Source of the DNA: Phoronis australis
Taxonomy: Eukaryota > Animalia > Phoronida
Direction of reading: 5' to 3'
Length of the DNA: 64,000 bases
Assembly (NCBI GenBank): GCA_002633005.1
Contig: NMRA01000469.1
Location: forward strand, 235,573-299,572
The notes beneath the pieces are model-generated. The model was given only the letters and a program-made list of their open reading frames with translations, searched no databases and had not been told where the DNA came from. The position numbers and the translations under genes were made by a program. This document shows, in pieces, positions 8,674-47,804 of the stretch; the first letter of the stretch is position 1; each line of letters begins with the position of its first letter.

Positions 8674-10366
8674 CAGTGTAAATAGACAAGAGGTCGGTGT
8701 AAATAGATCACGAGATTTTCAATAATAGTAGTACACCACCACCTCAGAGCGGTTTTAAAAAGTCATGTAAATAATTGTATTTTACGCATTATTAATCACA
8801 CAGTAATTTCACTGCACGTTGAACGTCATTAAATTATGAACTTATCAGTGTTTAGATGGTTCAGACTCCTGCTGCTAAATTAGGGTTGCTTAGTCGCCGC
8901 TTGGGATGCTAGTTTTTCAACCGATAACCATTTCGGCGAATGGCAAGATGGCGGAGTAGAACTTCCTATTGTACCACACCCCTTGTTGAACCTCATTGTC
9001 ACCTGTTGTCATCTTCATAGGAGAACATCCAACAAATTTCACAAAGACCCTTTAAAGGACTAAGGAAATATTGCTGAGGATGCAAAATAACAAAAATTGT
9101 CACTAGGGGGCACCAGAGTAGTTGAACCCACCTGGAACTAATTGTCAGCCATGGTTTTCTCATCAGAACCACAACTGCCAATTTTCATAATGAACGTTTG
9201 AACGGCTAGGCGGATAGAAAATTAATGTGGACGTCAAAAATATACTAAAAAATTTTTAAATGGTCACCAGGTGGTGCAGAAAACCTTAAATCTGTCCATC
9301 AAGAGTAATACTAAGCATTGAAGTGCATCCACGAATGCAAACAGGGTGTTTCTAGAGGTGTTCATTTGTATCATAAATGGCCACTAGGTGGTGCAAAATA
9401 CATCGAATCCATCAAAAAAACGGGAACATGTCATTGTTTCTTTAATAGTAGTTAATTACCAAATTTTATAAATATCTGTTGAGGAACTTCAGGAAAAAAC
9501 TGAAAAAATGAAATTGCCANCAGTGTAAATAGACAAGAGGTCGGTGTAAATAGATCACAAGATTTTCCATAATAGTAGTACGCCACCGCCTCAGAGCGGT
9601 TTTAGAAAGTCATGTAAATAATTGTATTTTACGCATTATTAATCACACAGTAATTTCACTGCACGTTGAACGTCATTAAAGTATGAACTTATCAGTGTTT
9701 AGATGGTTCAGACTCCTCCTGCTAAATTAGGGTTGCCTAGTCGCCGCTTGGGATGCTAGTTTTCCAACCGATAACCATTTTGGCGAATGGCAAGATGGCG
9801 GAGTAGAACTTCCTATTGTACCACACCCCTTGTCGAACCTCATTGTCACCTGTTGTCATCTTCATAGGAGAACATCCAACAAATTTCACAAAGACCCTTT
9901 AAAGGACTAAGGAAATATTGCTGAGGATGCAAAATAACAAAAATTGTCACTAGGGGGCACCAGAGCAGTTGAACCCACCTGGAACTAATTGTCAGCCATG
10001 GTTTTCTCATCAGAACCACAACTGCCAATTTTCATAATGAACGTTTGAACGGCTAGGCGGATAGAAAATTAATGTGGACGTCAAAAATATACTAAAAAAT
10101 TTTTAAATGGTCACCAGGTGGTGCAGAAAACCTTAAATCTGTCCATCAAGAGTAATACTAAGCATTGAAGTGCATCCAGGAATGCAAACAGGGTGTTTCT
10201 AGAGGTGTTCATTTGTATCATAAATGGCCACTAGGTGGTGCAAAATACATCGAATCCATCAAAAAAACGGGAACATGTCATTGTTTCTTTAATAGTAGTT
10301 AATTACCAAATTTTATAAATATCTGTTGAGGAACTTCAGGAAAAAACTGAAAAAATGAAATTGCCA
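8674..10366. repeat. Near-identical direct duplication (8674-9519 vs 9521-10366) separated by a single N; probable assembly/haplotype artefact
   Basis: The 846-bp copies differ by scattered SNPs and the junction is exactly an N. Confidence 0.85.
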
Positions 10367-19863: not shown

Positions 19864-19969
19864 CAGTGTCCAGGCATTTGGTCAGTCCTAGCTCCCGGAC
19901 TACCTCATCAACACGTGCCAGTTTCTCCTTTCGACTCAGTCTATCGGGCAAACGAAGCAAAGCCGTGTA
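19864..19969 (-). CDS. ABCG coding exon 3
   Basis: ttcatttctag|TAC ACG GCT: YTALLRLPDRLSRKEKLARVDEVVRELGLTKCLDT, G|gtgggt; phase 0/1; absent from the ORF track. Confidence 0.95.
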
Positions 19970-20943
19970 CTAGAAATGAAAGAAGCTCAAGTCAGTGACA
20001 AGTAACAGAATCTACTGTAATTTTTATTGTAATTTAAAGGGTTATGTTTTCCTTGTGTTCTTATTTTCCATTAAAGCTCATTAATGAGTAAAGCCAGGTA
20101 GGTAAAAATTCTCCAGTTTGGACAGTCTTTAAAATTTGAGACAGCCGAATTTTTTTATTCTAAAGATTGGCCCGTGGGTGATTTGAGGCTCATCAAGTTT
20201 CTCAAATATCACGCATATATTTTTGAATTAACGAAGCTTGAAAATAGATTTTACAGTTCATAAAATCGTAAGAATTGCAAAATTGCAGGCCATGCAACGT
20301 TTTCATCTGCTCCATAGTATTTAACACCAAGGTGAATGGCCCTATGTCGTTGATCATCATTATTGAATTTAGGACAACCAATAATGGTTACATCTAAAAT
20401 TTGGTACAAGCTCCAACCATGAGCAAACTAATTGATTTTTCATTGCCCAAAATTGGAGAATTATTACCGTACATAAATTACAGTTCAGCTCATATTAAAA
20501 TGGCCGAGCGTCAAGGTACAGTCAAAGGTAGCAAAAAGTTGACGCAAACAATTCTAAGTCTGTGCTTGTTAGCAGAAGATTTGAAATACAGTAAAAATCC
20601 TACAATTTGGGATAAAAACATTCCTTAAAATATTTTTTTAATATTTTTCTAATTTTGTATAAATGTTCAGTTTACCAAATGCTGCATAGCAGCTATAGCA
20701 TAGAAACTGTCTTAACAAGAGATTTAAATTTTCAGGTAAAATCATATTCTATTTAAAATTTGACAAAATAAAATTCCATTTGTCAGCCATAGTCTGTTCT
20801 AAATTGAAGACTTTTGCCAGTAGTATTTTGTAAACATATCAAATACAACCTCCCAATGTAGAGAGCAGCAAAAACAACTGCTGTTCAGGACCTACTGAGA
20901 CACATTATTGGTCATAGACACCTCTGTCTTACCTAAGGTCAAT

Positions 20944-21119
20944 GGCCAATTAAATGCCTGATAAAACACTTGTGGTTTTTCAGAGAACCTGGCTGCAGAA
21001 AAGTTCATTATAACCACTAGGGGGTATCCACACATGGACACAGGATGATCTCACTCAGGAAATGAATGACCATTACTTGTCTTCTTACAGCATTGCTAGT
21101 TTATCACAGGAGTGTAAGT
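20944..21119 (+). promoter_or_regulatory. Candidate promoter/5'-UTR exon of the nested receptor (CCAAT, GATA, RUNX, ETS-like motifs; donor at 21114)
   Basis: ggCCAAT 20944, TGATAA 20959, TGTGGTT 20971, CAGGAAAT 21056, TTATCA 21101, gtaagt 21114. Short motifs only. Confidence 0.3.
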
Positions 21120-21263
21120 TTTACAGCATGAACAACACCCTCATTACAAATATCAAAACTATTCATTATAAATAAACATATGGTCTGATCATGCATATAA
21201 AATTTCTCACATGTTCTGCATAAAACTAATTGAATCATTTTAGTAAAAAAAATTACAGAACAG

Positions 21264-21511
21264 GGGCCCGTTCCAACAAAACTAACTTAGCTAAGACAAA
21301 TCTTAAATTTTAGTAAATTTTAAGATAAAACTTAAACTTGTCTCGAGACTGTTTTAAGCAAGAGGTCCTAAGTTTGAATTAAGTTTTTGATAAAAGTTCA
21401 ATCTTAATTTTAACTATTTGACCGGATGGGGAAGTTTCAAAGTTTGGAAGTTAAGACAAATCTTAGACTTAAGTCAAAAATGAACTTAAGTCAGTTTCTT
21501 GGAACGGGACC
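21264..21511. mobile_element. PIF/Harbinger-like MITE with CAG target-site duplication
   Basis: CAG|GGGCCCGTTCCAACAAAACTAACTTA ... TAAGTCAGTTTCTTGGAACGGGACC|CAG. Confidence 0.8.
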
Positions 21512-21880
21512 CAGGTCTAAACCAATTGTACTGCTACTGTTAAAATTGTTGTAAATATCTAAATATAAAAACTTTCAAGAGTGAAAATTTATTAATCAAA
21601 CTAGAATGCAGGCACCTACTTGTGTTACTTTCCTCGTAAAACGCTGCCATTCTGATATCATTTGGTCCAATTAAATTGAATTGCTCATAAGCAAAATGAT
21701 CAAAACTTTCCACAAGACAGTCTCCAGTAATTCCTGCCATCTCACACTGTGTTATAGTAATTAGCGCCATGGAGCCAGGTGCTGGCTAATTTAACCAGTT
21801 GTTGGCAAGCTGGGCAGCACATAAGTGATTGGATGAGCTGGCATAAGGTTCTCTACATCAGAAATCCATGTAAACAGACT

Positions 21881-21941
21881 ATGGATCCAGTGTGTATGTA
21901 CAACAGGCTTAGCACCCTGGTTCTGTTATTGTTGTATACAG
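21881..21941 (+). CDS. Nested Ig/SUEL-lectin receptor, exon 1 (signal peptide)
   Basis: ATG 21881: MDPVCMYNRLSTLVLLLLYT, G|gtaggt (phase 1); hydrophobic core continues as VLNADG in exon 2. Confidence 0.8.
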
Positions 21942-22423
21942 GTAGGTTACCTCACTGGCGGGTAATAACTCCTTATAATGCTACTTGTACTAACTCCATG
22001 ATTCCTGGCTTCAGAAGACATGAAAGTTTTACGTCAATCTTGGCATACCACAAAACTCAACTGCCACGTGCTCAACACAAAAAGAAGCACAAGTTGAGCA
22101 GTGAACTAAGTAACTGAAACTTAAACATTTCTTACTGACCAAACATTTCTTGAATGTTTTAGAATAATGCGTACCAAATACTTTGGATAATAAAAAATTA
22201 CAAAAATCATGATTGAATAGACACTATTAAACTGTTCTATCTTTTTGATGTAGTTTATATTCCACCAGTACAACACAAGTATCATTCCTAAAGTAACATG
22301 TGGTATTGTTCATTTCTAACATAAATCTAACTTATTGTTTCCATTTTTCAATACTCCAAATAGTATAGTGCATAAGTCTCATACGCTAAATATAATCTAG
22401 ACAGGTTTTGACAAAGGTACTTT

Positions 22424-22570
22424 TGAACTTGTATCATTGTTAATACTACAACTTGAACTTGTATCATTGTTAATACAACAACTTGAACTTGTATCATTGT
22501 TAATACAACAACTTGAACTTGTATCATTGTTAATACTACAACTTGAACTTGTATCATTGTTAATACAACT
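22424..22570. repeat. 30-bp tandem repeat (~5 units) just upstream of the Ig exon acceptor
   Basis: tgaacttgtatcattgttaatacWacaact repeated. Confidence 0.95.
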
Positions 22571-22587
22571 TTTTTGGAACTTTCCAG

Positions 22588-22962
22588 TTTTAAATGCAGA
22601 TGGACTAGATGTGAAAGTTCCATATAAAACAGTGGGCCAAGGTGGAGGTGTTACAGTCTTGAGGTGCCGGTATCACGTGACTGATAAGGATAGCTTTCAG
22701 AGTCTCATGTGGACAGGGCCTCGTGGCATTGTATTTGAGATCCCGCACGTAAACGAACATGGCAATATTTATAAAAATGGAACATTCCTGCATGACTATA
22801 AGAGACGTGGTTCGGTAATGCCCTATTACCGTGGTCAGTCAATGACAGATTTGCTCATTTCCTTGAGTGAAATGAACTATGAAGATGAAGGTGTCTACAA
22901 CTGTACAGTGAATGCAAACTCTGGAAGTGCTGCATCAGGTGCAACAAAACTAATCTTGGACT
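22588..22962 (+). CDS. Nested receptor exon 2: V-set immunoglobulin domain
   Basis: tttccag|TT TTA (alternative acceptor at 22600); B-strand VTVLRCRY, C-strand LMW, F-strand DEGVYNCTV, G-strand SGATKLIL; T|gtgagt; phase 1/1. Confidence 0.92.
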
Positions 22963-24228
22963 GTGAGTTACTTAAACCGCTTCAAAATTCCTGAGTGCTT
23001 GTTTAACATTTAAAAACCTTTTACCTGATGTTTAACTGATTGGCACAACAGGCTAATGTATGTATTTAAAACTCTACCTTTTCTTCTAGGTTTCTGAAAT
23101 CCAACACTTGCACTTGAACACGATGAAGGAACAAATCAAAGGAGAAGTGACTTTTTTCCACTTCAGTAACTTTTAATTGGTGCCAATATGTTCATGTTGA
23201 GAACATTACTTGAGCCAAGGACATGTTTTATGTCACACCAACTTTTGTTACGAAAGATCAAACATATTTTAGTGGAAATGAGATTGCAAAAACAATGAAA
23301 ACAGATCTATTACCTAAAACACATATTTAATACTTGAAAATATTTTTGTAGGTAATTTTATCGGTCATTTTCCCACTCCTCCATACAATGGGAGAAAAAG
23401 CCAACATGGAGCACATCTCTTGTATTAAGCACATTTCAAGGCTGACCTCCAGTATTTTACAATAATTTATTGTTCAACCTCATTCCTTTCTGGATCAATC
23501 TTATCTTAATCGTGAATATGTCAGCAATGCAAATCGTCAAATCTCGTATAATTATAATAATTGCTTAAAAATACATTTTTTTTCTGTTTTCAAAGACTGG
23601 TTGCACTGTCTGTTAAAATGCTATTCTAATTTTACCAAAATTTTCTTTAATTATAACAACAGTACTACCCTAAACTCTCACTGATTTAAGAAACAATATG
23701 GTTGACATGTCAAATATTAGTATATCATTTTTACATGGAAGATATGTAGCACCAAATTAATGGGTTTCCTAGTTCAAGCTCTGTACCATAGCTATTATCT
23801 GATAATGCATTGAAAACTGTGGACCATAGACATCAATGTTAGAAGACCTTGAAAAATGAAAAACAATGCGAAATTGGTCAGAGTTTACTGTAACCATGGT
23901 AACGAAAAAGTCAAACGTTTCTCAACATTTATCTCTGTTGAGAATTTTGACAACGTAAAATTCCACATTTCCCATCTTGTGTGATGACCTGAGAAGTGTT
24001 TATCACACAGAGGAGTATTTTGTCGTTCCTATTCTGGTTTTTCAATCGAAATGTCAACATCCGCATCAAGGCTGGAGTATCAATGGTCAGAGAAAGATGA
24101 TACATAAACCAGGATCATCTGATACAAGTGAACTGGGACAGCCTTTCAAATAGCACTACTAAACAGGGTTATCACTGAACACTTGAGTTATCCATGTGCC
24201 TTCATTTGTGGGTGTCTATTTATTGCAG

Positions 24229-24537
24229 ACTCCACCAGCCATAGTACAGTGCAATGTCACAGGGCTGAGCCATTCCATCTGTGGTGCTCGACAGGTACCG
24301 TGCAGGTGTACGCACTACAGTATGGCTGGAACCAGAACAGGCACACCTGTTCCTTTGAGCCCTATGGTTGTACAGACGGCTATAGGTACCCAGAGAATTC
24401 AACACACTTAAAGCCACACAGGAACAAGTGTGAAGAGCGAACGGCATGTAAAATCAACCCCAAGCCAATTCATCTGAAATGTTACGGTTTGCCTGTGTTG
24501 ACCTCTACAGTAGTGGCTGTCAGATACTGGTGTGCAG
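24229..24537 (+). CDS. Nested receptor exon 3: SUEL/rhamnose-binding-lectin-like domain 1
   Basis: tattgcag|AC ... G|gtaagt; 8 Cys in SUEL spacing: QC..LWC..YGWN..C..C..KCEERTAC..C..VRYWC. Confidence 0.88.
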
Positions 24538-25436
24538 GTAAGTAAACAGTTACAGTAAGGAACAAATTCAATAGTTCTTCTGTGGTAATTACCAAAAAAA
24601 ACCCAATACCAAACCAGAAAGAAGTACTTAAACAAACTCCCAGAGATATTTATGTTTGATTATCAATTTCATTAGCACACTTTTTGCTGTAAACATCTTT
24701 CCCTCAATACGTAAGCACTGCAAAGCAATTAGAGAAAGGGCAGTCCAGCCAAAAATGTAAATCAATAAATATTTATACCTACACAGACATGATTGTCACT
24801 GCTGCTCCTGCTAAGTGGCTGTTGCTTTTTCCAAATCACATCTATACAACTTCAAGTAAATTATGCCAGTCTCAATCACAATGTAAATGGACAGTGAAAA
24901 GTATTTACAAATTGAAAAATACCAAACTGATCAAAACATTAACAGAATTTCGACATCAGCAGCAAATTAACAGAAAGTCTTTTCCTTCAACCAAGGATTT
25001 GCACTTCTGTGAAGACCATTTACAGTGCAAAGGCAAAAAAATTCCAAAACACAGCGGTTTCAGACATTTCAGTAGAAATAGACTGCACTAATCATCATCT
25101 ATCCAGGTCAAAGGTCAATCACACACCCATACTTGTGATTTCTGAATATGCAAATTTAATTTTACCTCCCACGCTGCCTGGTTCATTTGAGGAGGAATAC
25201 AGTGAGTACTGTCACACTAGGGCGGGAAAGTTGCTAAGCCTACGGTTGCCTTTTCTGACCAATTCCCAATTGTGATAAAACAGCACTTCCCATCACAGGA
25301 AACATGAAACTGGCATTAGTCAGGCCATCCCTGATATTTTGTTTTTCCCCTCATCATCGCTCCTGTGTGACATGTGAATATAGGTCGTTAATATATTTCT
25401 CTTCCTGTTTTCAGTGTTGAGACACCCTCATTTTTA

Positions 25437-25940
25437 GGCCTTTTCATATTAACTTAACTACGGTCTGAGCGGAACGTCAATGTAAACAGCGCAGTTAACT
25501 GGACCGTCCATACTGGCTTCGGTAGTTAATGACCATCGAAGTAAAGGGTTGATGACGCTGACGTCATCGAAGTTATCGCAAGGTAGCGCTGCACGCTAAG
25601 ATTTTTTTCAATGTGACAATTTGGAACATTTAAATGTGCTAAATGACGTTAAACTCATTTTTAAATCTATTTGTTATCATTAAAGCAAAAAATAAGTAGT
25701 TATTAGTGACGACACTACTCTGTAACTGTTGACGATAACAGTGGCACCTGGCGATAACTTCGATTGGACCGGAGTTAAGCGTTCATACTGCACTGCAGCG
25801 TCGACGCTGCAGTCTTAAATCCACCTATTATCTGCGATGTTAACTGGAGCTCTTAACTGCGATTCAGGACCGGAGTTAAGCGTTCATACTGACCACAACT
25901 CCCCAAACCATCGACACGTCGACGTTAGTATGAAAGGCCC
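25437..25940. mobile_element. Harbinger-like MITE in intron 3 of the nested gene
   Basis: Imperfect TIRs ggccttttcatattaac / gttagtatgaaaggccc; internal repeat ggaccggagttaagcgttcatactg x2. Confidence 0.65.
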
Positions 25941-26052
25941 TTTTGTTTCATATCTTTTTTTGATTCCAAATAAAATTCTTTGACTGCATATTTTATTATC
26001 AGTCCCTGGAGGAGAATCTAAACTTCATTGATGCCTTACTATGAATTTGTAG

Positions 26053-26370
26053 ATCGTACAAGTAAAAGCATCACGTCATGCCATGATGAAGGAACCATTA
26101 TGTTATGGTGTCAATCAGGAACTATTGTGATCTACAGGATCAAATACGGCATGAACCAAGATGCCACTGTCTGTACGGAATACGAAGAAGGGAGCTGTGT
26201 TGAGAGTTTCACCACACCAGCCAATAACAGCCATATTGACAAGTACATGTCACAATGTAATGGGCGTCATTCATGCATCGTTAACCCGAACCCAATACGA
26301 ATGAAGACCAACTGCTTCGGATACCGTGGTATTATATCAACATTCGTCACAATATACTACAAATGTGAAG
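26053..26370 (+). CDS. Nested receptor exon 4: SUEL/rhamnose-binding-lectin-like domain 2
   Basis: tttgtag|AT ... G|gtaagt; 8 Cys: SC..LWC..YGMN..C..C..QCNGRHSC..C..IYYKC; clearly paralogous to exon 3. Confidence 0.9.
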
Positions 26371-27705
26371 GTAAGTATCTGTAACATTCACAATACCACA
26401 AATATTCAGTTGCCAGAGAAAAAAAGTCAAGGCAAGCTTTTTAATTCGAGATGAAGTGTGAAGAACACTACTTAATTATTTACGAATGATGAGTATCAAC
26501 ATAATGTTACTTCACTTCTAAATGAAAGTGCTTTGTAATGTGATTGGCATTCAACAGCAAATGGAAAATTTGGAATTATGTAGTAAGCCATTGACCATTA
26601 CAATAGGAACTAAAGTTTTAGAAAAATTGAAGAAAATTGATAGAAATTACTCCTGACATCTTACAAAACGAATCTTAAAGTCGCAGTTATCTGCCAAGTT
26701 CTCAGTTGGGCATATTGTTTGTATCAAGTGACTCAAGGAACAAGAGTTCCGATAAATAATTCCATAAATTGTTTTTAAAGTGATCCATGACTAACTGACC
26801 TAATTAGTACAAAACCTAAAAGAAAAAAGTTTATGTTTCAGGTTTGATAATAAAGTTACTGCACTTCTTGTCAGTGTTACTATTGAAAATACAAACATTT
26901 CAGCAAGATGCCAGAGATAATTGAAAACATCCCTTTCCAAGGCCAATTTCAACCAATTACATTTAAGAATGTTGATGAGGACTTTAATCTTCCTCAAGGC
27001 CACCCACTGAAATTAACTACAGATCATTGGGCATGAAATAAACCATGTCACAAATCTCACTTGAGAACCAGTTTCTCAACTGAATAACCAGTAACTAACT
27101 GGTTCTCAAATTCCAGCACCAGCAAGAGACATGTACAGCACATAGAACAGGTAGACCTACATTCTAAATGTCACAGAAAATTTAGATATCAAATATTTAG
27201 GACAATTAAAAATAGAAATACTAAAATGTTCATCTGAAACTTTGGTTAAGCACAGGTGCCACATGTCTCTTAGATCATCACTTAGTTATGTCCTGGCTTA
27301 TATCATTTTTAAATCAGAACCATTGAAGCGTAGGGTATGCTTTGACAAAAGTTTCAAAAACACTTTCTTGATGTTTTTATAACCCTTTTTGGCAACAAAG
27401 TGTTGTCAACTTAATATCCTTATAAATGATTAGATAAACATGTGACTGCCTTCAAAGAGGTATAACCGTAGATATTTACTGCATGTTCTGAAATTAGAAA
27501 TAATCAAAAATCATGCCATATGTTTTGGGACAGCATGTGATCAGCTTTCACTGCCATTTTCAGTCAAAAGGAGCAGCACAACAGATGACTCACAATTTCA
27601 CAAAATAATGAGGCTTTTCCACATTTTGAACACAATTGTCAACTAAAGCTAAACTGACTCTGAGGATGTTATGTAAATAATGCGAAACATTTTATTTGAT
27701 GACAG

Positions 27706-27843
27706 TCCAGCCAGAGAGGCCATTAGAGGATACCTATTTCCTAAACAAAGAATTAACGTCAGCTCACACTGTGCCGTCAGTTGGACCAAATACAACTACA
27801 AGAGCCCATGGAACTGAACCGAGTCTTCGATATACCAGCATAG
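27706..27843 (+). CDS. Nested receptor exon 5: Thr/Ser/Pro-rich stalk
   Basis: gacag|TC CAG ... ATA G|gtgagc; VQPERPLEDTYFLNKELTSAHTVPSVGPNTTTRAHGTEPSLRYTSI; phase 1/1, open. Confidence 0.78.
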
Positions 27844-28732
27844 GTGAGCATGTTCATCCCATAAGTAAAAAGTGACAAGACAAAGATTGGCAAGGCAGTA
27901 ACAATTATTTCGATTCAGGATCCTTTAAATGCCAATAGAATCGAGATCTTAAAAAGGAAATATGACAATTATCTGCCACCAATATGCAAAATATGTTCTT
28001 TTACATTTACTGTATACACCCTGTTTGGCAATTAAACTTTATTACTTTGTGAAATGAAAATTGTTCAAGAACGTTGTCACAGCTTGGTAAAAGCAGTCTT
28101 TCACTTGTCCAAAAAATTTACTTATTTTTTTCTTTCTTCGTTCACTACACTTGTCTCATAAAAAAAACTATCGTTATTTGTTATAATGAGATTCAAAGTG
28201 ACTGAGGTGGTAGTCATTTTGTTGCCAAACTTACACTTGATAATGCTTGTAAGACCCACATTGTTCATCATACAGCGCTCACAATTGACAGGTTCATAAA
28301 GTCACAACTGTACTGTCAATATACTTCAGCTGCTTCCATTCCAAGACAACAGGGTTCAGCAACCTTTATATTGAGTCAAACTAATAATTTTTACTAAAAA
28401 CATATTTTGTCGAACAGAGGTCGCCATATAGAGGCAACAACTTTAGTTTGGATGCGTTTTACAATGATTTTTCACATTTGCTTAGTCGTGTGAAATTTAC
28501 ATTCAAGATAGCACATCCAGACATCATTTTGTATTTTTCACTTGGTGTGAGTTGCCTTCTTAATGCATTGAACGAACATTAAGAAATTGGTTTAAAAATG
28601 CTCTATTTAATGAACAGTAGGAATTTCTCCAACTTATACAGAAGATTTTGAATTTAATTGACAGAAATGAGTAGACAAACAATGACAAATTTGATCTGTT
28701 AACATACTACAGGCTGAATTTTTAACCAATTT

Positions 28733-28900
28733 ACACAAGACACGGGCATTGTCAATACCTTCACAAGACACGGGCATTGTCAATACCTCCACAAGACAAA
28801 GGCATTGTCAATACCTCCACAAGACAAAGGCATTGTCAATATCTCCACAAGACATGGCATTGTCAATACCTCCACAAGACAAAGGCATTGTCAATACCTC
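28733..28900. repeat. 28-bp tandem repeat running into a gap
   Basis: cacaagacaaaggcattgtcaatacctc repeated. Confidence 0.95.
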
Positions 28901-29754
28901 NNNNNNNNNNNNNNNNNNNNNNNNNNNNNNNNNNNNNNNNNNNNNNNNNNNNNNNNNNNNNNNNNNNNNNNNNNNNNNNNNNNNNNNNNNNNNNNNNNNN
29001 NNNNNNNNNNNNNNNNNNNNNNNNNNNNNNNNNNNNNNNNNNNNNNNNNNNNNNNNNNNNNNNNNNNNNNNNNNNNNNNNNNNNNNNNNNNNNNNNNNNN
29101 NNNNNNNNNNNNNNNNNNNNNNNNNNNNNNNNNNNNNNNNNNNNNNNNNNNNNNNNNNNNNNNNNNNNNNNNNNNNNNNNNNNNNNNNNNNNNNNNNNNN
29201 NNNNNNNNNNNNNNNNNNNNNNNNNNNNNNNNNNNNNNNNNNNNNNNNNNNNNNNNNNNNNNNNNNNNNNNNNNNNNNNNNNNNNNNNNNNNNNNNNNNN
29301 NNNNNNNNNNNNNNNNNNNNNNNNNNNNNNNNNNNNNNNNNNNNNNNNNNNNNNNNNNNNNNNNNNNNNNNNNNNNNNNNNNNNNNNNNNNNNNNNNNNN
29401 NNNNNNNNNNNNNNNNNNNNNNNNNNNNNNNNNNNNNNNNNNNNNNNNNNNNNNNNNNNNNNNNNNNNNNNNNNNNNNNNNNNNNNNNNNNNNNNNNNNN
29501 NNNNNNNNNNNNNNNNNNNNNNNNNNNNNNNNNNNNNNNNNNNNNNNNNNNNNNNNNNNNNNNNNNNNNNNNNNNNNNNNNNNNNNNNNNNNNNNNNNNN
29601 NNNNNNNNNNNNNNNNNNNNNNNNNNNNNNNNNNNNNNNNNNNNNNNNNNNNNNNNNNNNNNNNNNNNNNNNNNNNNNNNNNNNNNNNNNNNNNNNNNNN
29701 NNNNNNNNNNNNNNNNNNNNNNNNNNNNNNNNNNNNNNNNNNNNNNNNNNNNNN

Positions 29755-30017
29755 NTGCATACAGCACAGTATCTGACAGTGTATACAGCATGGTATATGA
29801 CAGTGCATACAGCACAGTACCTGACAGTGCATACAGCACAGTATCTGACAGTGTATACAGCATGGTATATGACAGTGCATACAGCACAGTATCTGACAGT
29901 GTATACTGCACAGTATTTGACAGTGTATACTGCACGGTATTTGACAGTGTATACGGCATGGTATCTGACAGTGTATACAGCACAGTATCTGACAGTGTAT
30001 ACAGCACAGTATCTGAA
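29755..30017. repeat. 24-bp tandem repeat emerging from a gap
   Basis: tgtatacagcacagtatctgacag repeated. Confidence 0.95.
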
Positions 30018-30224
30018 AGTTTCATAGAATCAAGGCTTTCAGAGATAAAGCTTGGACACTTTTCTAGGGTGCTACATAACTTTAATTTAATGCTTTCTAT
30101 TGCTAAATTGCATTATGTACATAATTGAAAAATTAAAGTCACTTAAATACAAAATATAACAATTCAAGCTAAAACTACTAAAACTGCTGTTGTGTAATAA
30201 ATTTCTTTGAATGTGACATTCCAG

Positions 30225-30315
30225 AGAACAACACTATACTACTGACAGTAATAGCCACATGTGGTCTCATAGTTGGAGTACTCTTAACGCTACTTGGTGA
30301 ATGTATTTTTTACAG
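30225..30315 (+). CDS. Nested receptor exon 6: transmembrane helix
   Basis: attccag|AG AAC ... TAC AG|gtgagt; ENNTILLTVIATCGLIVGVLLTLLGECIFY(R); phase 1/2. Confidence 0.88.
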
Positions 30316-32348
30316 GTGAGTATATCCGCCAAGCAATCTTTTTACTACTATAATTTATTCTGAACTACATATCCTGACGGTACTATTAGAATTATTTGTG
30401 ATACATAATTAAACTTTACTTGTCAAACTAGTCTTGTGCCTGCAGAGAACAATCATGCGAGAAACTGAATAAAGACAACCTTTTTTGACTCCAATATGAT
30501 TCATTGAAAACACATCAAATAACAAAGATTGAAAACTTGAAATGGAAAAGGAATATTTCACTCATTCTCGCACAAAATCACAGAGTATCTCACTCATCAA
30601 TTCAAAAATGAATTTCCAAACTCATGTCCCGACTTCTTATTAAAAATTAACACACTCCAGAATATTTTTCACTATTGAAGTAACTGGGACAAAATTCCCA
30701 GAAGCATTAACACACAGTTTTATCTTTCCTTTTCATTTAATGCCAATTAATTTGCTAACACCAGCACAATATCAGGTAGAACTTGCAGATTGCTTGTTCT
30801 GAACAACAAATTACTGTTTTTGGGAAAAGGTGTCAAAATCACTTGTCAACATCACGCCTAAGATCAATCCACAATTTTTCCAAATCACGAAATATTTGAC
30901 AGTCCCTGAGACAAGGAAGTTTGATATGCCTAATGTGGAAAACTGTAAACAACACCAGAAACAGAAAATGCTCAAAAGCGAATATGAAAAAGCACTCGGC
31001 AGTAGCGCAGGACTGTATATAGACACACAAATGCGTAAATTTTAAATTTTTAGTAATGAGCATGGTGTGAAATAAATAAAGGCGATCTGGAGCCATGTGA
31101 TAGTTAGACATGATTGAGAAACTTGTGAAGTTTCCCAGTGGGGCTCACACATGAGCTGATGCAACACAAGTAGCCAAGTTTGCTCGTTAAGGTGATAAAG
31201 GTGCAAACTTAAAAACCAGCAGAGATTGAACAGTTTTAAATTGTAACAGATGTTCTAGTCTAGTTACTTGACAGGTTAAATGTTTTCACACGCATGAGTT
31301 ACAGAGAATGTCTTGCTAAAACTGCAAAGGCAACATAAATAATTTTGCTTTGCTACTCAGGTATGAGTAATGATTTGATTCACCACAACTTTTAGCCTAC
31401 ACTGCACACTAAAACTGTGAAATTCCACTATAAATTTTTTATTTATCCTAAAAAATAGAGTTTGTGCTTGTATTATTGAATTTAAGACTAAATTAAATGC
31501 ATGGCATCAAATACGTTACGTATGACATGAAGCAAGTTGACACCGTGGCAGCCATTTTTGTCACCAGTTTGAGAGGTTCTGCAAGTTACACTCGATCAGC
31601 TGCTCCAGTGTCAACTTCACGTCTTAAACACAAACTGGGGCAAGGCGGAAGGGATCATCTCTGTTACGCTTGCATAATAGTGTATACATGTGTGATCCCT
31701 TGGCAATCCACATGGTTTCCCTATTGTTTATGTGAGCATGTGCACAGTCTCCATGTAAATGACTCGTGCTCATTCAATTTTCGATCTAATGTTGTTGCAA
31801 CTACAGTAGAGTAACTCATGCCGTGAATATTGTTCCTCGTGTAAAAACAAATCAAAAGTCAAAATTTTACTCTCGGTGATAAAATTCGTAATAAATTGAC
31901 GAGTCTTTGCCAATTGTCACTGAGAATTTGCCTTAAGCCGATACAAACCTTTCTTCTTAAACAAAAACAAATCAGACAACTTCCGTTATGAAATTGGTCT
32001 CAAATTGTTTCTTTCTAAAATAAGATCACATTTCTATGCTTAGAAAAAATATCAGTTTGTTATTGTTGAAGACTAGATTGCACAAATGGGCTCTCGTCAC
32101 TAGATTGCACAAGTGGGCACTCGTCACTAGATTGTACAAGTGGGCTCGTCACACGGCATCATTTTACGCACTAAGACTGATCTTATAACAAACAGTCCAC
32201 TTCCTTCCAATCTCTGAAATTATTTTTCATCTGTAAAAAGGGAAAAAATGATAGAAATTTTCTAGCGATAAGTGGTCTAAATCTAAATCAAAAGTTGGTT
32301 TCTTAAATCATAAGCCATTTTAACATAACCAATTGCTTTGTTCACTAG

Positions 32349-32592
32349 GTGTTGTAAACCAACAAATCAAACCAAATCACACTATGAGACACGCAGAAGA
32401 ATGCAATCAGAACAGACAGGAGAGACAAGTCAAAAGGAACTGGAGATCAACTCTCTGTACAGGACGGACACATATGAATCTCTAGGATCACCTACTGAGT
32501 GTTCACTGGCCAAACAAGTGGTTGATCTGGAACCCAGTGCGTCATTGAGAGGCTTATGTGCTGGAGAATCATATATCAACTCAAAACTTTGA
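32349..32592 (+). CDS. Nested receptor exon 7: cytoplasmic tail with tyrosine motifs, stop codon
   Basis: tgctttgttcactag|G TGT TGT (phase 2 matches); RCCKPTNQTKSHYETRRR...INSLYRTDTYESL...GESYINSKL*. Confidence 0.82.
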
Positions 32593-32712: not shown

Positions 32713-32718
32713 AATAAA
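32713..32718 (+). promoter_or_regulatory. Candidate polyadenylation signal of the nested gene
   Basis: AATAAA about 120 nt after the stop, followed by a GT/T-rich tract. Confidence 0.55.
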
Positions 32719-38341: not shown

Positions 38342-38600
38342 GGAGGCAAACCTGATAGCCCTTCATGATCAGTTTCTGCACTCGGTAAACACTGTACACT
38401 GCAGCCGCCACAAAACATCATCCTTGGCTTCAATTATTGCATCAGGATTTGTTAAAGCAATATTTTTGCCTTTCACAAAGCCCAGATTTTATCTTGATGA
38501 CATTTTCAATCACTCAACTTCAACTGCTGATAAACAGGCCTCAAATGCTTATACACTATGCCTTAGCAATAGGCCGCGTAACTTTAAAAAATCAACTTAC

Positions 38601-38770
38601 CACCAAGGTTTCACGAACTGTAAGGTTGGAAAATAACAGATCTTGTTGCAGAACATAACAGATCTTTCTCTTGGTCGCTTTTGTAAGTTTCTCCCCGTTG
38701 ACCGTCATACTTCCTGAGTCAATAGCTGCACGTCCAGCCAGCACATTTAACAGAGTAGTCTTACCAGATC
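38601..38770 (-). CDS. ABCG coding exon 2 (Walker A end, Q-loop)
   Basis: ttcag|GA TCT GGT AAG: (G)SGKTTLLNVLAGRAAIDSGSMTVNGEKLTKATKRKICYVLQQDLLFSNLTVRETLV|gtaagt; phase 1/0. Confidence 0.96.
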
Positions 38771-39863
38771 CTGAAGAACACAGAAAACTAATCACAAAAA
38801 GTCAAAAGCAATTTAAACATCTATTCAAAAAGAAATCTTTCTACAACAAAATTTCTTCTGCAAAATTATATAATTATCAATCAAGGTTGTCTCAAAAGTA
38901 CATGCCACTTTTGTTATTCCTAATAATTCTGTCAATAATGATGGTTTTGTAACTAAGTTTTCAAATTTGAAAGAGGAAGTCATAAGGCAAAATAGCTCGG
39001 ACAAAGAAGAATTGTTTTCATGACAACAACGAAATTTAGAAACAAAACCATTCAAATGTTGCAAAAAGAGTTCACGGGAAGTTCAACATCAACACCTTCA
39101 CCCACAAAAGCAAATACTTTCAAGCCATTGGAACAATGATCACCTTAAGCAGGATGTGAGAAAGATCCAAACAGGAAGTTGACAATAAAATTTCTTGACA
39201 ATGTGGATGTGGTGAATGATTATGCAGGAAAAAAGTGCATCAGAAAATGTAACCAACAGGCTTTGCCTTTCTCTAACTTAATGCAAAGTCAAGATCAAGG
39301 ATCTTCAACTCTTTCAAACAAAACCTAGATCAATTACCTATGCTGTCTCATGTCAGTTACTAAATAAATGTGGAGCTACCTACAGGAGTAAAATTTCTTG
39401 CCGTTTTATTAATAATGACTTCAGATGGATATTAAAATTTGAAAATTAATGAAAAAGAAAAAAATATTTAAAATATTTCAGTCACTATAAACTGGGTAAC
39501 AGCTTTCATAACTTGGGCTTTAACTAGCTTCAGCATAAGTCAACCGAAAACAGACAAAATAACCCATTATTCAGCATTACGACAGCTGAGTATGTTACGA
39601 CTGTTATGTGTAAACGAAATCGACAGTCATGACTGGTAATTTACCAGTAAACTAATAGACAAGTAAAGTTATCCACTATTCATTTAGTTCAGATCTACTC
39701 AATAGTAAGCAAACCTTGTGATTTCTTATAAAGGAAGCATCATGCAACAAATGCAGACAATCGATACTTTGTAATTAGGTCACCCATTACCAGTCTACAT
39801 AACCTTTTACATGAGAGACAGTTGTCACCGTGTCAGTTGCCACGGTGCCACCGGCTCCACTTT

Positions 39864-46335: not shown

Positions 46336-47414
46336 CATCCGGTGGGGACCTGTACTTTGTGTTCAGACTGGTTATGAGGAGTATGGCGTCGCCATGATCA
46401 ATTTGAGGTAGGGAATACAACACCAGTGAAACAAAATTGTCTTTAAAATGTAGAAATCGATCCCATATTTAATTAGACACAGTTCTGCCAAATAGCTTAA
46501 GGGTTGTGGCAAGCGCTAAATGCTTCTCATGTTGGTGTGACCAGGAATGACAGCCCAGTGCGGCTTGGTAGCCGTGGTGTCGTGAAATAATCAGGAATAC
46601 GGGTGAAAGTTCGTTATAAAATAATGCATTATGCCACTGATTTAATACATTTCATAATTTATCAGTAATATCTTATGAAGACGCGTGCATGTATTGCAAA
46701 TGTTTCAGCTAAAAGTGTGCTTGATTAACAAAGATATGGAAAGTATAAATTAGGCAGTCAGACAAATGAGTGTACGGCTTGCCTCAGCCAACTGTAGGCT
46801 AGTCATGAGTAACTGTACAAACTCGTCAGTGAGCTGGTAAATAATTAATGAAATTTTAATCAGAAAAGACTGTTTAACTTGATAATTACCTACAGTTCTT
46901 GAAGATTATAGTACCAATGGTGACTAGAGAAAGATTGCATGTATTTGCAATATATTGTAATGGCTTTAAAAAGTGAGAACACAGATAAGAAGCGTACATA
47001 AGGTCATTGTCATTAATCATTTTGAATAAAGTGAAAATGATGTAAAAACAATTTACAATTTTTTCAGATTAAAGAACTTCAAATGCTGTCACTGCTGTGT
47101 TGGCACAGATCACTTTGTTGAAGTAATAGGCTACAGCATGGAAAATCATGCCGATCAAGTAAAAAGGATTAGGTATCTACCATTGCAAGAACACAGCGGT
47201 TTAGAATGTTTCTGAGTAATAAAGTTATGGGTGCACTCCCAACAGTGCTTTGGAGGAAGGCTCCAAAATTGTGCCAAACCAGTTCAAGGAAAAGATATCT
47301 ATACGAGATTAAGAGTTTGATCACAAGAGTCCATTTAAGAAAAAATCAAAAGTAGAATGAGAAGGCCAAGATGAAGAATTCGCCGAGCGAAAACATTGTG
47401 AAAGGGAGACAGAT

Positions 47415-47804
47415 TTGGAAGCACGGGAACACAAAGCGATAAAAGAAATGTGTGATGTCACACCACAGATGATCGATGCTTTGAAAACGACAGGAAAGTC
47501 AGACACCTGGGTCAAGTTTAATAGGATGATAGCGGATGGCACGTTCCCCATAGACAATATAATGTTCTTACTCTTTTTAGATGTGGCAGACTGGTTTACC
47601 CTTGACAACACCATAACAATGAGGTACTTGAACGACATTGTAAAGTTTTGGCAGATCGGATACGAACTTTTCCACGGAAGATTTTTGAGATTCATGTCAG
47701 GGTTCAAGCATATCGGAATGAAATCTGGTGGAGACCCATTAGAATCGAAAATAAACTTTGCCGTTCCAAACGTTAAGCTTCGTCGAAAGTGGATAAGTCT
47801 ATAA
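47415..47804 (+). pseudogene. Decayed transposase-like coding fragment
   Basis: Protein-like intronless ORF ...NIMFLLFLDVADWF..MRYLNDIVKFWQIGYELFHGRFLRFMSG...INFAVP; truncated by stops on both sides; family assignment from memory only. Confidence 0.5.

Follow-up and report, generated by a model that had tools for sequence, protein, structure and literature searches.

A predicted membrane receptor combining a V-set Ig domain with two SUEL-fold domains, encoded within an ABCG intron of Phoronis australis

Results

Gene structure

In a 64,000-nt stretch of Phoronis australis contig NMRA01000469.1 (the window, to which all positions refer), we analyzed a gene of seven plus-strand exons that lies nested, in antisense orientation, in an intron of ~18.6 kb (ends approximate) of a gene for an ABCG half-transporter. 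All seven exons were found in place at the coordinates proposed in the initial annotation. Exon 1 (21881..21941) contains the start codon and the greater part of a predicted signal peptide, exon 2 (22588..22962) a V-set immunoglobulin (Ig) domain, exon 3 (24229..24537) and exon 4 (26053..26370) the first and second of two domains with the predicted fold of SUEL/rhamnose-binding lectins (RBLs), each with eight cysteines and a degenerate sugar site, exon 5 (27706..27843) a Ser/Thr/Pro-rich stalk (35% S+T+P), exon 6 (30225..30315) a predicted transmembrane (TM) helix at about residues 405-425 with a GxxxG motif, and exon 7 (32349..32592) the cytoplasmic tail and the stop codon. The six introns are all GT-AG, with 7-9 of 9 consensus positions matched at the donor sites, and the junction phases (1, 1, 1, 1, 1 and 2) match throughout. 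Splicing yields an open reading frame (ORF) of 1536 nt with a single terminal stop, encoding 511 residues, and a candidate polyadenylation signal, AATAAA, is found on the plus strand 121 nt past the stop (32713..32718), again as first described. At the sequence level the gene is real and intact, and the ORF, the splice signals and the domain matches uphold the earlier prediction of a single-pass type I membrane protein combining a V-type Ig domain (IgV) with two SUEL-fold domains.

Further in-frame ATGs for exon 1 are located at 21833 and 21896. The interval that separates exon 2 from the flanking ABCG exon (19970-22587) contains no signal-peptide-like phase-1 exon other than exon 1, the background of such donors being one in 50 kb or ~0.05 per 2.6 kb. 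Scanning of introns 2 and 3 revealed no signal-peptide-like alternative first exon, and no polyadenylation signal was found in intron 2, which contains a weak TM-like phase-1 frame at 23453 (hydropathy 1.84). A search for TM-like internal exons between 26371 and 38560 found exon 6 alone, with a Kyte-Doolittle peak of 2.65 in a 19-residue window. Intron 5 contains an assembly gap of 855 N (28901..29755) that could hide a further phase-1 exon. The gap is flanked by tandem arrays of 28-bp and 24-bp repeats (28734-30020), and several reading frames are open in the 24-bp array.

The V-set domain

The V-set identity assigned earlier to exon 2 was confirmed by Pfam (PF07686, E 8.7e-6, 26.3 bits with a cut-off of 26), and the hallmarks of the domain are kept, including Cys47, Trp62, a DxGxYxC motif at 120-126 and a cysteine spacing of 79 residues. 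The Atlas neighbors of exon 2 were V-set clusters (0.93-0.96), among them clusters named after nectin-2 and CD200 (0.95-0.96). A Siglec-like reading, judged against the sugar-binding Arg motif of Siglecs, was ruled out, as Cys126 is followed by Thr and the F-strand Arg is missing.

The SUEL-fold domains

The eight cysteines of the two following domains are located within residues 155-247 (exon 3) and 258-353 (exon 4). Both exons matched the SUEL family in Pfam (PF02140; exon 3, E 0.014 and 16.2 bits; exon 4, E 7.3e-4 and 20.3 bits), neither reaching the gathering score of 31.4 bits. A hidden Markov model of 201 SUEL domains scored exon 3 at 24.5 bits and exon 4 at 30.9 bits, with a maximum of 8.7 bits for shuffled sequences (999 scored out of 1000). 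Among PDB sequences, exon 4 matched salmon CSL2 (phmmer, E 2.6e-8), and its WD40/WRAP matches in the same search were taken as noise. The Atlas neighbors of exon 4 were SUEL clusters at 0.95-0.96, with a recognition value under the threshold of the tool.

For structure prediction with AlphaFold2, exon 4 was supplied with a 24-row alignment including 22 known SUEL proteins and exon 3, in which seven cysteines and a YG pair are invariant. The resulting model (pLDDT 81.9, pTM 0.77) was used in a fold search (VIA), where each of the top five rows was an RBL or latrophilin lectin domain (Z 8.2-9.3, root-mean-square deviation [rmsd] 3.3-3.8, 86-89 aligned residues). CSL3 was the best match (Z 9.3, rmsd 3.5, 88 aligned), and the others were latrophilin lectin domains (Z 8.9, 8.5, and 8.2) and SUL-I (Z 8.3). 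Viral and toxin titles low in the fold-search lists were taken as noise. The proposal that the Cys-rich domains fold as SUEL is thus supported by the match of the domain 2 model to CSL3, and we infer the same fold for domain 1 from its 35% identity to the modeled domain.

Further matches of the SUEL-fold model were Plasmodium P113 (Z 7.8) and, with Z 7.2, one chain of the RH5-CyRPA-RIPR complex, which on this modeling would be additional surface proteins with a SUEL fold.

Exons 3 and 4 are each other's closest match (E 1e-21), and have an NPxPI segment and a His in common. Over 102 codons, the identity of the pair at codon positions 1, 2, and 3 is 0.54, 0.61, and 0.27, respectively; the conservation of the first two positions and the saturation of the third indicate that the duplication is old and the copies have been under purifying selection.

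The sugar site

In known SUEL domains the sugar site has been described at the residue level. In Lat-1, Glu42, Gly117, and Lys120 contact rhamnose, Arg65 and Lys120 have a structural role, and similar substitutions are reported to abolish monosaccharide binding (PMC2430599). The equivalents in CSL3 are Glu7, Tyr27, Gly83, and Lys86, in addition to Asn74 and Asp79 (PMC3269628). In the Phoronis protein, Glu is replaced by His156 in domain 1 and His259 in domain 2, the Arg of the YGR motif by Trp179 and Met282, respectively, and the Asp-Pro motif is missing from both domains. Thr occupies the Lys column in both, and a loop-2 Lys is found in neither register. Both domains thereby lack all five of Glu, Arg, Asp, Pro, and Lys, which are present in 160, 189, 191, 197, and 197 of the 201 reference domains, respectively. 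Joint absence of Glu, Arg, and Lys was observed in only two of the 200 sampled domains with letters at all scored positions, in a set of 201 that is biased toward canonical RBLs because an amphioxus lectin supplied part of the search words.

Given the loss of the Glu and Lys that bind sugar, of the structural Arg and of Asp-Pro, a sensor of rhamnose or galactose is unlikely, and the description of the protein as an RBL-type pattern-recognition lectin was not retained, such losses being rare among the sampled relatives. The alternative named in the initial annotation, an adhesion receptor, fits better. By analogy with EVA-1 and latrophilin, protein binding is likely the better reading of the two domains than sugar binding.

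The cytoplasmic tail

The tail comprises ~80 residues, with a juxtamembrane Cys pair, a YESL motif (Y473), a YxN motif (Y506) and a C-terminal SKL. It had been described as Tyr-rich, but the tyrosine content is 6.0% in the tail and 6.3% in the whole protein. A consensus scan of the tail showed a single YxxL, at Y473, and no immunoreceptor tyrosine-based activation, inhibition or switch motif (ITAM, ITIM or ITSM). YESL and YxN may be SH2 sites, the Cys pair a palmitoylation site and SKL a class I PDZ site. Exon 7 had no match in Pfam, and FAM176 (PF14851) was found in neither exon 6 nor exon 7 when the two were scanned separately. The tail also showed no similarity to the EVA-1-like proteins P0169 and P0178.

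Transcription

Four RNA runs from the same species (X1-X4) were mapped, using ~18-19% of each raw run and a threshold of three reads for listing a junction; the mapping left out 28701-30039, between exons 5 and 6, and with it junction 5-6, and in X2 and X4 also exons 6-7. In X3, first-mate-minus depth was found in 8 of 8 non-repeat bins over exons 2-5 and in 0 of 16 purely intronic non-repeat bins, with four bins over an interspersed repeat excluded from the count; this orientation corresponds to plus-strand RNA in most stranded libraries, and presumably does so here. The depth in X3 was ~1.6x over exon 2, ~3x over exon 5, ~0.9x over exon 6 and ~1.75x over exon 7 (0.9-3.3x overall), and 0 in the intron bins flanking exon 5. 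The gene is probably transcribed at a low level. Reads and reference differ at three exonic sites, with 3 of 3 reads carrying the difference at each; two of these differences change IgV residues and one is silent. Polymorphism was not called, since three differences with three reads each are too little for this.

The interspersed repeat, at 25400-25945 in intron 3, attracted reads in both orientations and with numerous differences, in each of the four runs. A 34-nt stretch at 30052-30085 matches a different, more abundant transcript, and was covered by >100 X3 reads of one orientation with loose ends on both sides.

Relatives and domain architecture

In a search of 1.84 billion representatives, the sole credible match of exon 3 was an amphioxus RBL (E 1.2e-4), while a second match, to a repetitive bacterial protein, was rejected as spurious. 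When exon 4 was compared with longer proteins, none of nine candidates scored. In a small and biased sample of 65 SUEL proteins of 379-2000 residues, no Ig-family Pfam domain was found, and a rescan of 30 of these at E 0.05 gave no V-set, I-set or ig match. The SUEL partners in the 65 proteins include WSC, ZP, PAN, Sushi, TSP1, C-type lectin, SRCR, FAM176, and G protein-coupled receptor (GPCR) domains, and SUEL is a promiscuous module. No protein with Ig and SUEL domains was mentioned in the literature text searched, which included the available parts of PMC8878817, PMC9334734, PMC13619432, PMC5117596, PMC5549309, PMC11999971, and bioRxiv 2022.04.26.489627, with supplements and subscription journals outside it. 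The architecture of a V-set domain, two SUEL domains and a TM helix, which the initial annotation did not recognize, hence has no described match in these limited protein and literature searches, and is apparently undescribed.

Genomic surroundings

The host ABCG gene has at least eight exons on the minus strand, collinear from about 45680 to 620, and its 3' part extends beyond the window. The exons on either side of the receptor gene were located by tblastn, at 19865..19969 on the low side (minus strand; ABCG queries from Lingula, Owenia, and Branchiostoma) and at 38600..38780 on the high side (minus strand; with the Walker A motif). Among the matches listed, the closest to pieces of this gene were from Lingula (64.5% and 62.3% identity) and Owenia (61.3%), and in a 38-row tree drawn from the 120 matches listed it groups with Owenia (support 0.80). 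This grouping, though weak, points to a lophotrochozoan host as the likely one, and among those 120 matches none bears an echinoderm name; an echinoderm-type setting in coelomocytes, whose expression the initial annotation proposed to check, is not favored by the grouping. The window holds no paralogue of the receptor gene, and none of eight other ORFs in it matched Pfam convincingly. An 846-bp tandem duplication of 98.5% identity (8674-10366), joined by a single N at 9520, is probably an assembly artefact. On the plus strand at 47361-47804, a protein-like open frame of 147 codons with no Pfam match is possibly the remnant of a mobile element.

Discussion

A probable protein-binding surface receptor

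We consider it fairly probable that the intact nested gene encodes a single-pass surface receptor, in which the IgV and the SUEL pair are likely to bind protein partners and not rhamnose or galactose. Such a gene would have been assembled by phase-1 exon shuffling, and the duplication of the SUEL exon seems to postdate the decay of the sugar site, given the His in place of Glu and the Thr at the Lys column in both copies. V domains of the nectin or CD200 type engage a ligand on another cell, and the distal IgV could do the same. The SUEL pair may, like the corresponding domains of EVA-1 and latrophilin, form a second surface for binding proteins, whether these sit on other cells or in the matrix, with the stalk lifting the ectodomain. 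The tail has no enzyme, and might signal or be trafficked by recruiting adaptors through YESL, the YxN site and the class I PDZ-type C-terminus. The setting could be recognition in immunity, between self and non-self, among gametes or in the nervous system.

Several observations weigh against this reading. No spliced junction among those mapped was seen at three or more reads in any run, at low depth, and exon 1 had zero reads; the depth was 0 in the bin of the AATAAA, X1 had reads on exons 3 and 4 only, and in X2 and X4 no exon among those mapped was covered. Folded from its single sequence, exon 4 reached a pLDDT of 41, and the fold obtained with the alignment is partly circular because this was built from SUEL proteins. 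The Tyr of the primary site and the loop-2 Gly, two of its four residues, are kept in both SUEL domains, the shared His could form a changed pocket together with the loop residue Arg340, and the bias of the reference set noted above bears on how rare the losses appear. The tail motifs are short and could be due to chance. Finally, no orthologue was found in the exon-wise searches, although sparse sampling of the animal group may explain part of the missing relatives.

The missing junction reads and the uncovered first exon would also be expected if the model were mis-joined or incomplete, with Ig and SUEL exons belonging to separate transcripts, exon 1 wrong or a further exon lying in the gap. 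The 855-N gap in intron 5 and the weak TM-like frame at 23453 leave room for such errors. Against them, introns 2 and 3 lack a signal-peptide-like first exon, intron 2 lacks a polyadenylation signal, and the phases match. In addition, a single run has reads on each of exons 2-7, all of one strand and at a similar depth (0.9-3.3x), but none in the bin at 23453. We regard a mis-joined or incomplete model as improbable.

Loss of the lectin residues by drift in a decaying pseudogene would account for the strong divergence of the domains, the low expression and the lack of an orthologue among 1.84 billion representatives. However, 511 codons are free of stops and frameshifts, all 16 SUEL cysteines and the Ig core are kept, codon position 3 is saturated while positions 1 and 2 are conserved, and RNA is present, so that decay appears exceedingly improbable.

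The retained Tyr and Gly, together with the His and the NPxPI segment found in both copies, are points in favor of a true Ig-lectin pattern-recognition receptor that binds glycan through a rebuilt pocket, as a membrane-bound counterpart of the snail VIgL proteins in immunity. Fusions of the VIgL type, joining Ig to a lectin fold, recur in lophotrochozoan immunity, and the two differences that change IgV residues, each in 3 of 3 reads, are a faint hint of polymorphism. On the other hand, Glu, Lys, Arg, and Asp-Pro are gone, a degeneration seen in two of 200 sampled domains, and the tail without ITAM or ITIM, the lack of a paralogue in the window and the low expression do not suggest an immune receptor. 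A glycan-binding immune receptor is accordingly an unlikely reading, though not a negligible one. About as doubtful is the bolder proposal that the gene is the first member of a lineage-specific, polymorphic IgV-SUEL family, a membrane-bound, signaling counterpart of the secreted snail Ig-lectins, in which SUEL would have been rebuilt around a His pocket for immune or self/non-self recognition. If a polymorphic family of this kind exists in the genome, it would be a candidate for a recognition system in animals that have been little studied.

As a receptor that probably binds proteins, the product would add SUEL to the list of lectin folds fused to Ig in invertebrates, here in membrane-anchored form. 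Hardly any of the sampled relatives has a site as eroded as that of the two SUEL domains, in which the fold was apparently kept under selection. In PMC2430599, the RBL domains of receptors are argued to bind non-carbohydrate ligands, and the gene would allow a clean test of this proposal that receptor-borne RBL domains trade sugar binding for protein ligands. Genes of this type would probably be missed by annotation, because they fall below Pfam cut-offs and lie inside the intron of another gene.

Comparison with known systems

Tandem RBLs such as CSL2, CSL3, and SUL-I (PF02140) have the same eight-Cys fold in tandem. In the Phoronis protein, the predicted domains differ from these by the loss of Glu, Lys, the YGR Arg and Asp-Pro, by Pfam scores below the cut-off and by being embedded in a receptor. 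The VCBPs of amphioxus and Ciona are secreted proteins with two V domains and a chitin-binding domain. A V-type Ig joined to the fold of a glycan-binding module is common to both designs, whereas the receptor is predicted to have one V domain, two SUEL domains, a TM helix and a tail.

Closer in design are the gastropod VIgL proteins, which combine Ig with a lectin fold and include FREP, CREP, GREP, QREP, and HREP (PMC8878817, PMC9334734, PMC13619432). The partners of Ig in this family are fibrinogen, C-type lectin, galectin, C1q or H-type lectin (PMC8878817, PMC9334734). As in these proteins and in the crayfish Ig-CTL PcLec3, an N-terminal Ig is joined to a lectin-fold domain in the receptor. 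Its partner fold, however, is SUEL, the only one matched in Pfam and not on the VIgL list, and the receptor is predicted to be membrane-anchored with an 80-residue tail and a degenerate sugar site. Judged from its domain composition, the receptor resembles VIgL in design but is not a member, as the partner fold differs and the protein is predicted to be membrane-bound.

Latrophilin (ADGRL) shares with the receptor a membrane-borne SUEL fold that binds proteins, and titles of PDB entries report latrophilin lectin domains in complex with teneurin and TOL-1. It differs in being an adhesion GPCR with seven TM helices and one lectin domain, and in mouse Lat-1 the sugar residues are kept (PMC2430599).

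EVA-1 of C. elegans and EVA1C (C21orf63) have the same core layout as the receptor, with two SUEL-type domains, a single TM helix and a tail. The sugar residues of EVA-1 are partly lost (PMC2430599), and it binds protein ligands, both lectin-like domains being needed for binding of the protein MADD-4 (PMC4133157). These likenesses could mean that the receptor is a diverged EVA-1/EVA1C co-receptor for guidance cues that has gained an N-terminal IgV. EVA-1 itself has no IgV, and EVA-1-like proteins match FAM176 (P0169, E 1.7e-5; P0178, E 2e-12), whereas the receptor has a V-set domain, no FAM176 in exons 6-7 and a dissimilar, unrelated tail. The SUEL domains of P0169 and P0178 are outside the 12 nearest to either query domain, and most copies keep DPC and Lys. 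Since the query domains are instead nearest to each other (E 1e-21), an independent duplication is indicated, and descent from EVA-1 seems very improbable. By analogy with these systems, the receptor most likely works like EVA-1 or an adhesion receptor of the Ig superfamily, but is not an EVA-1.

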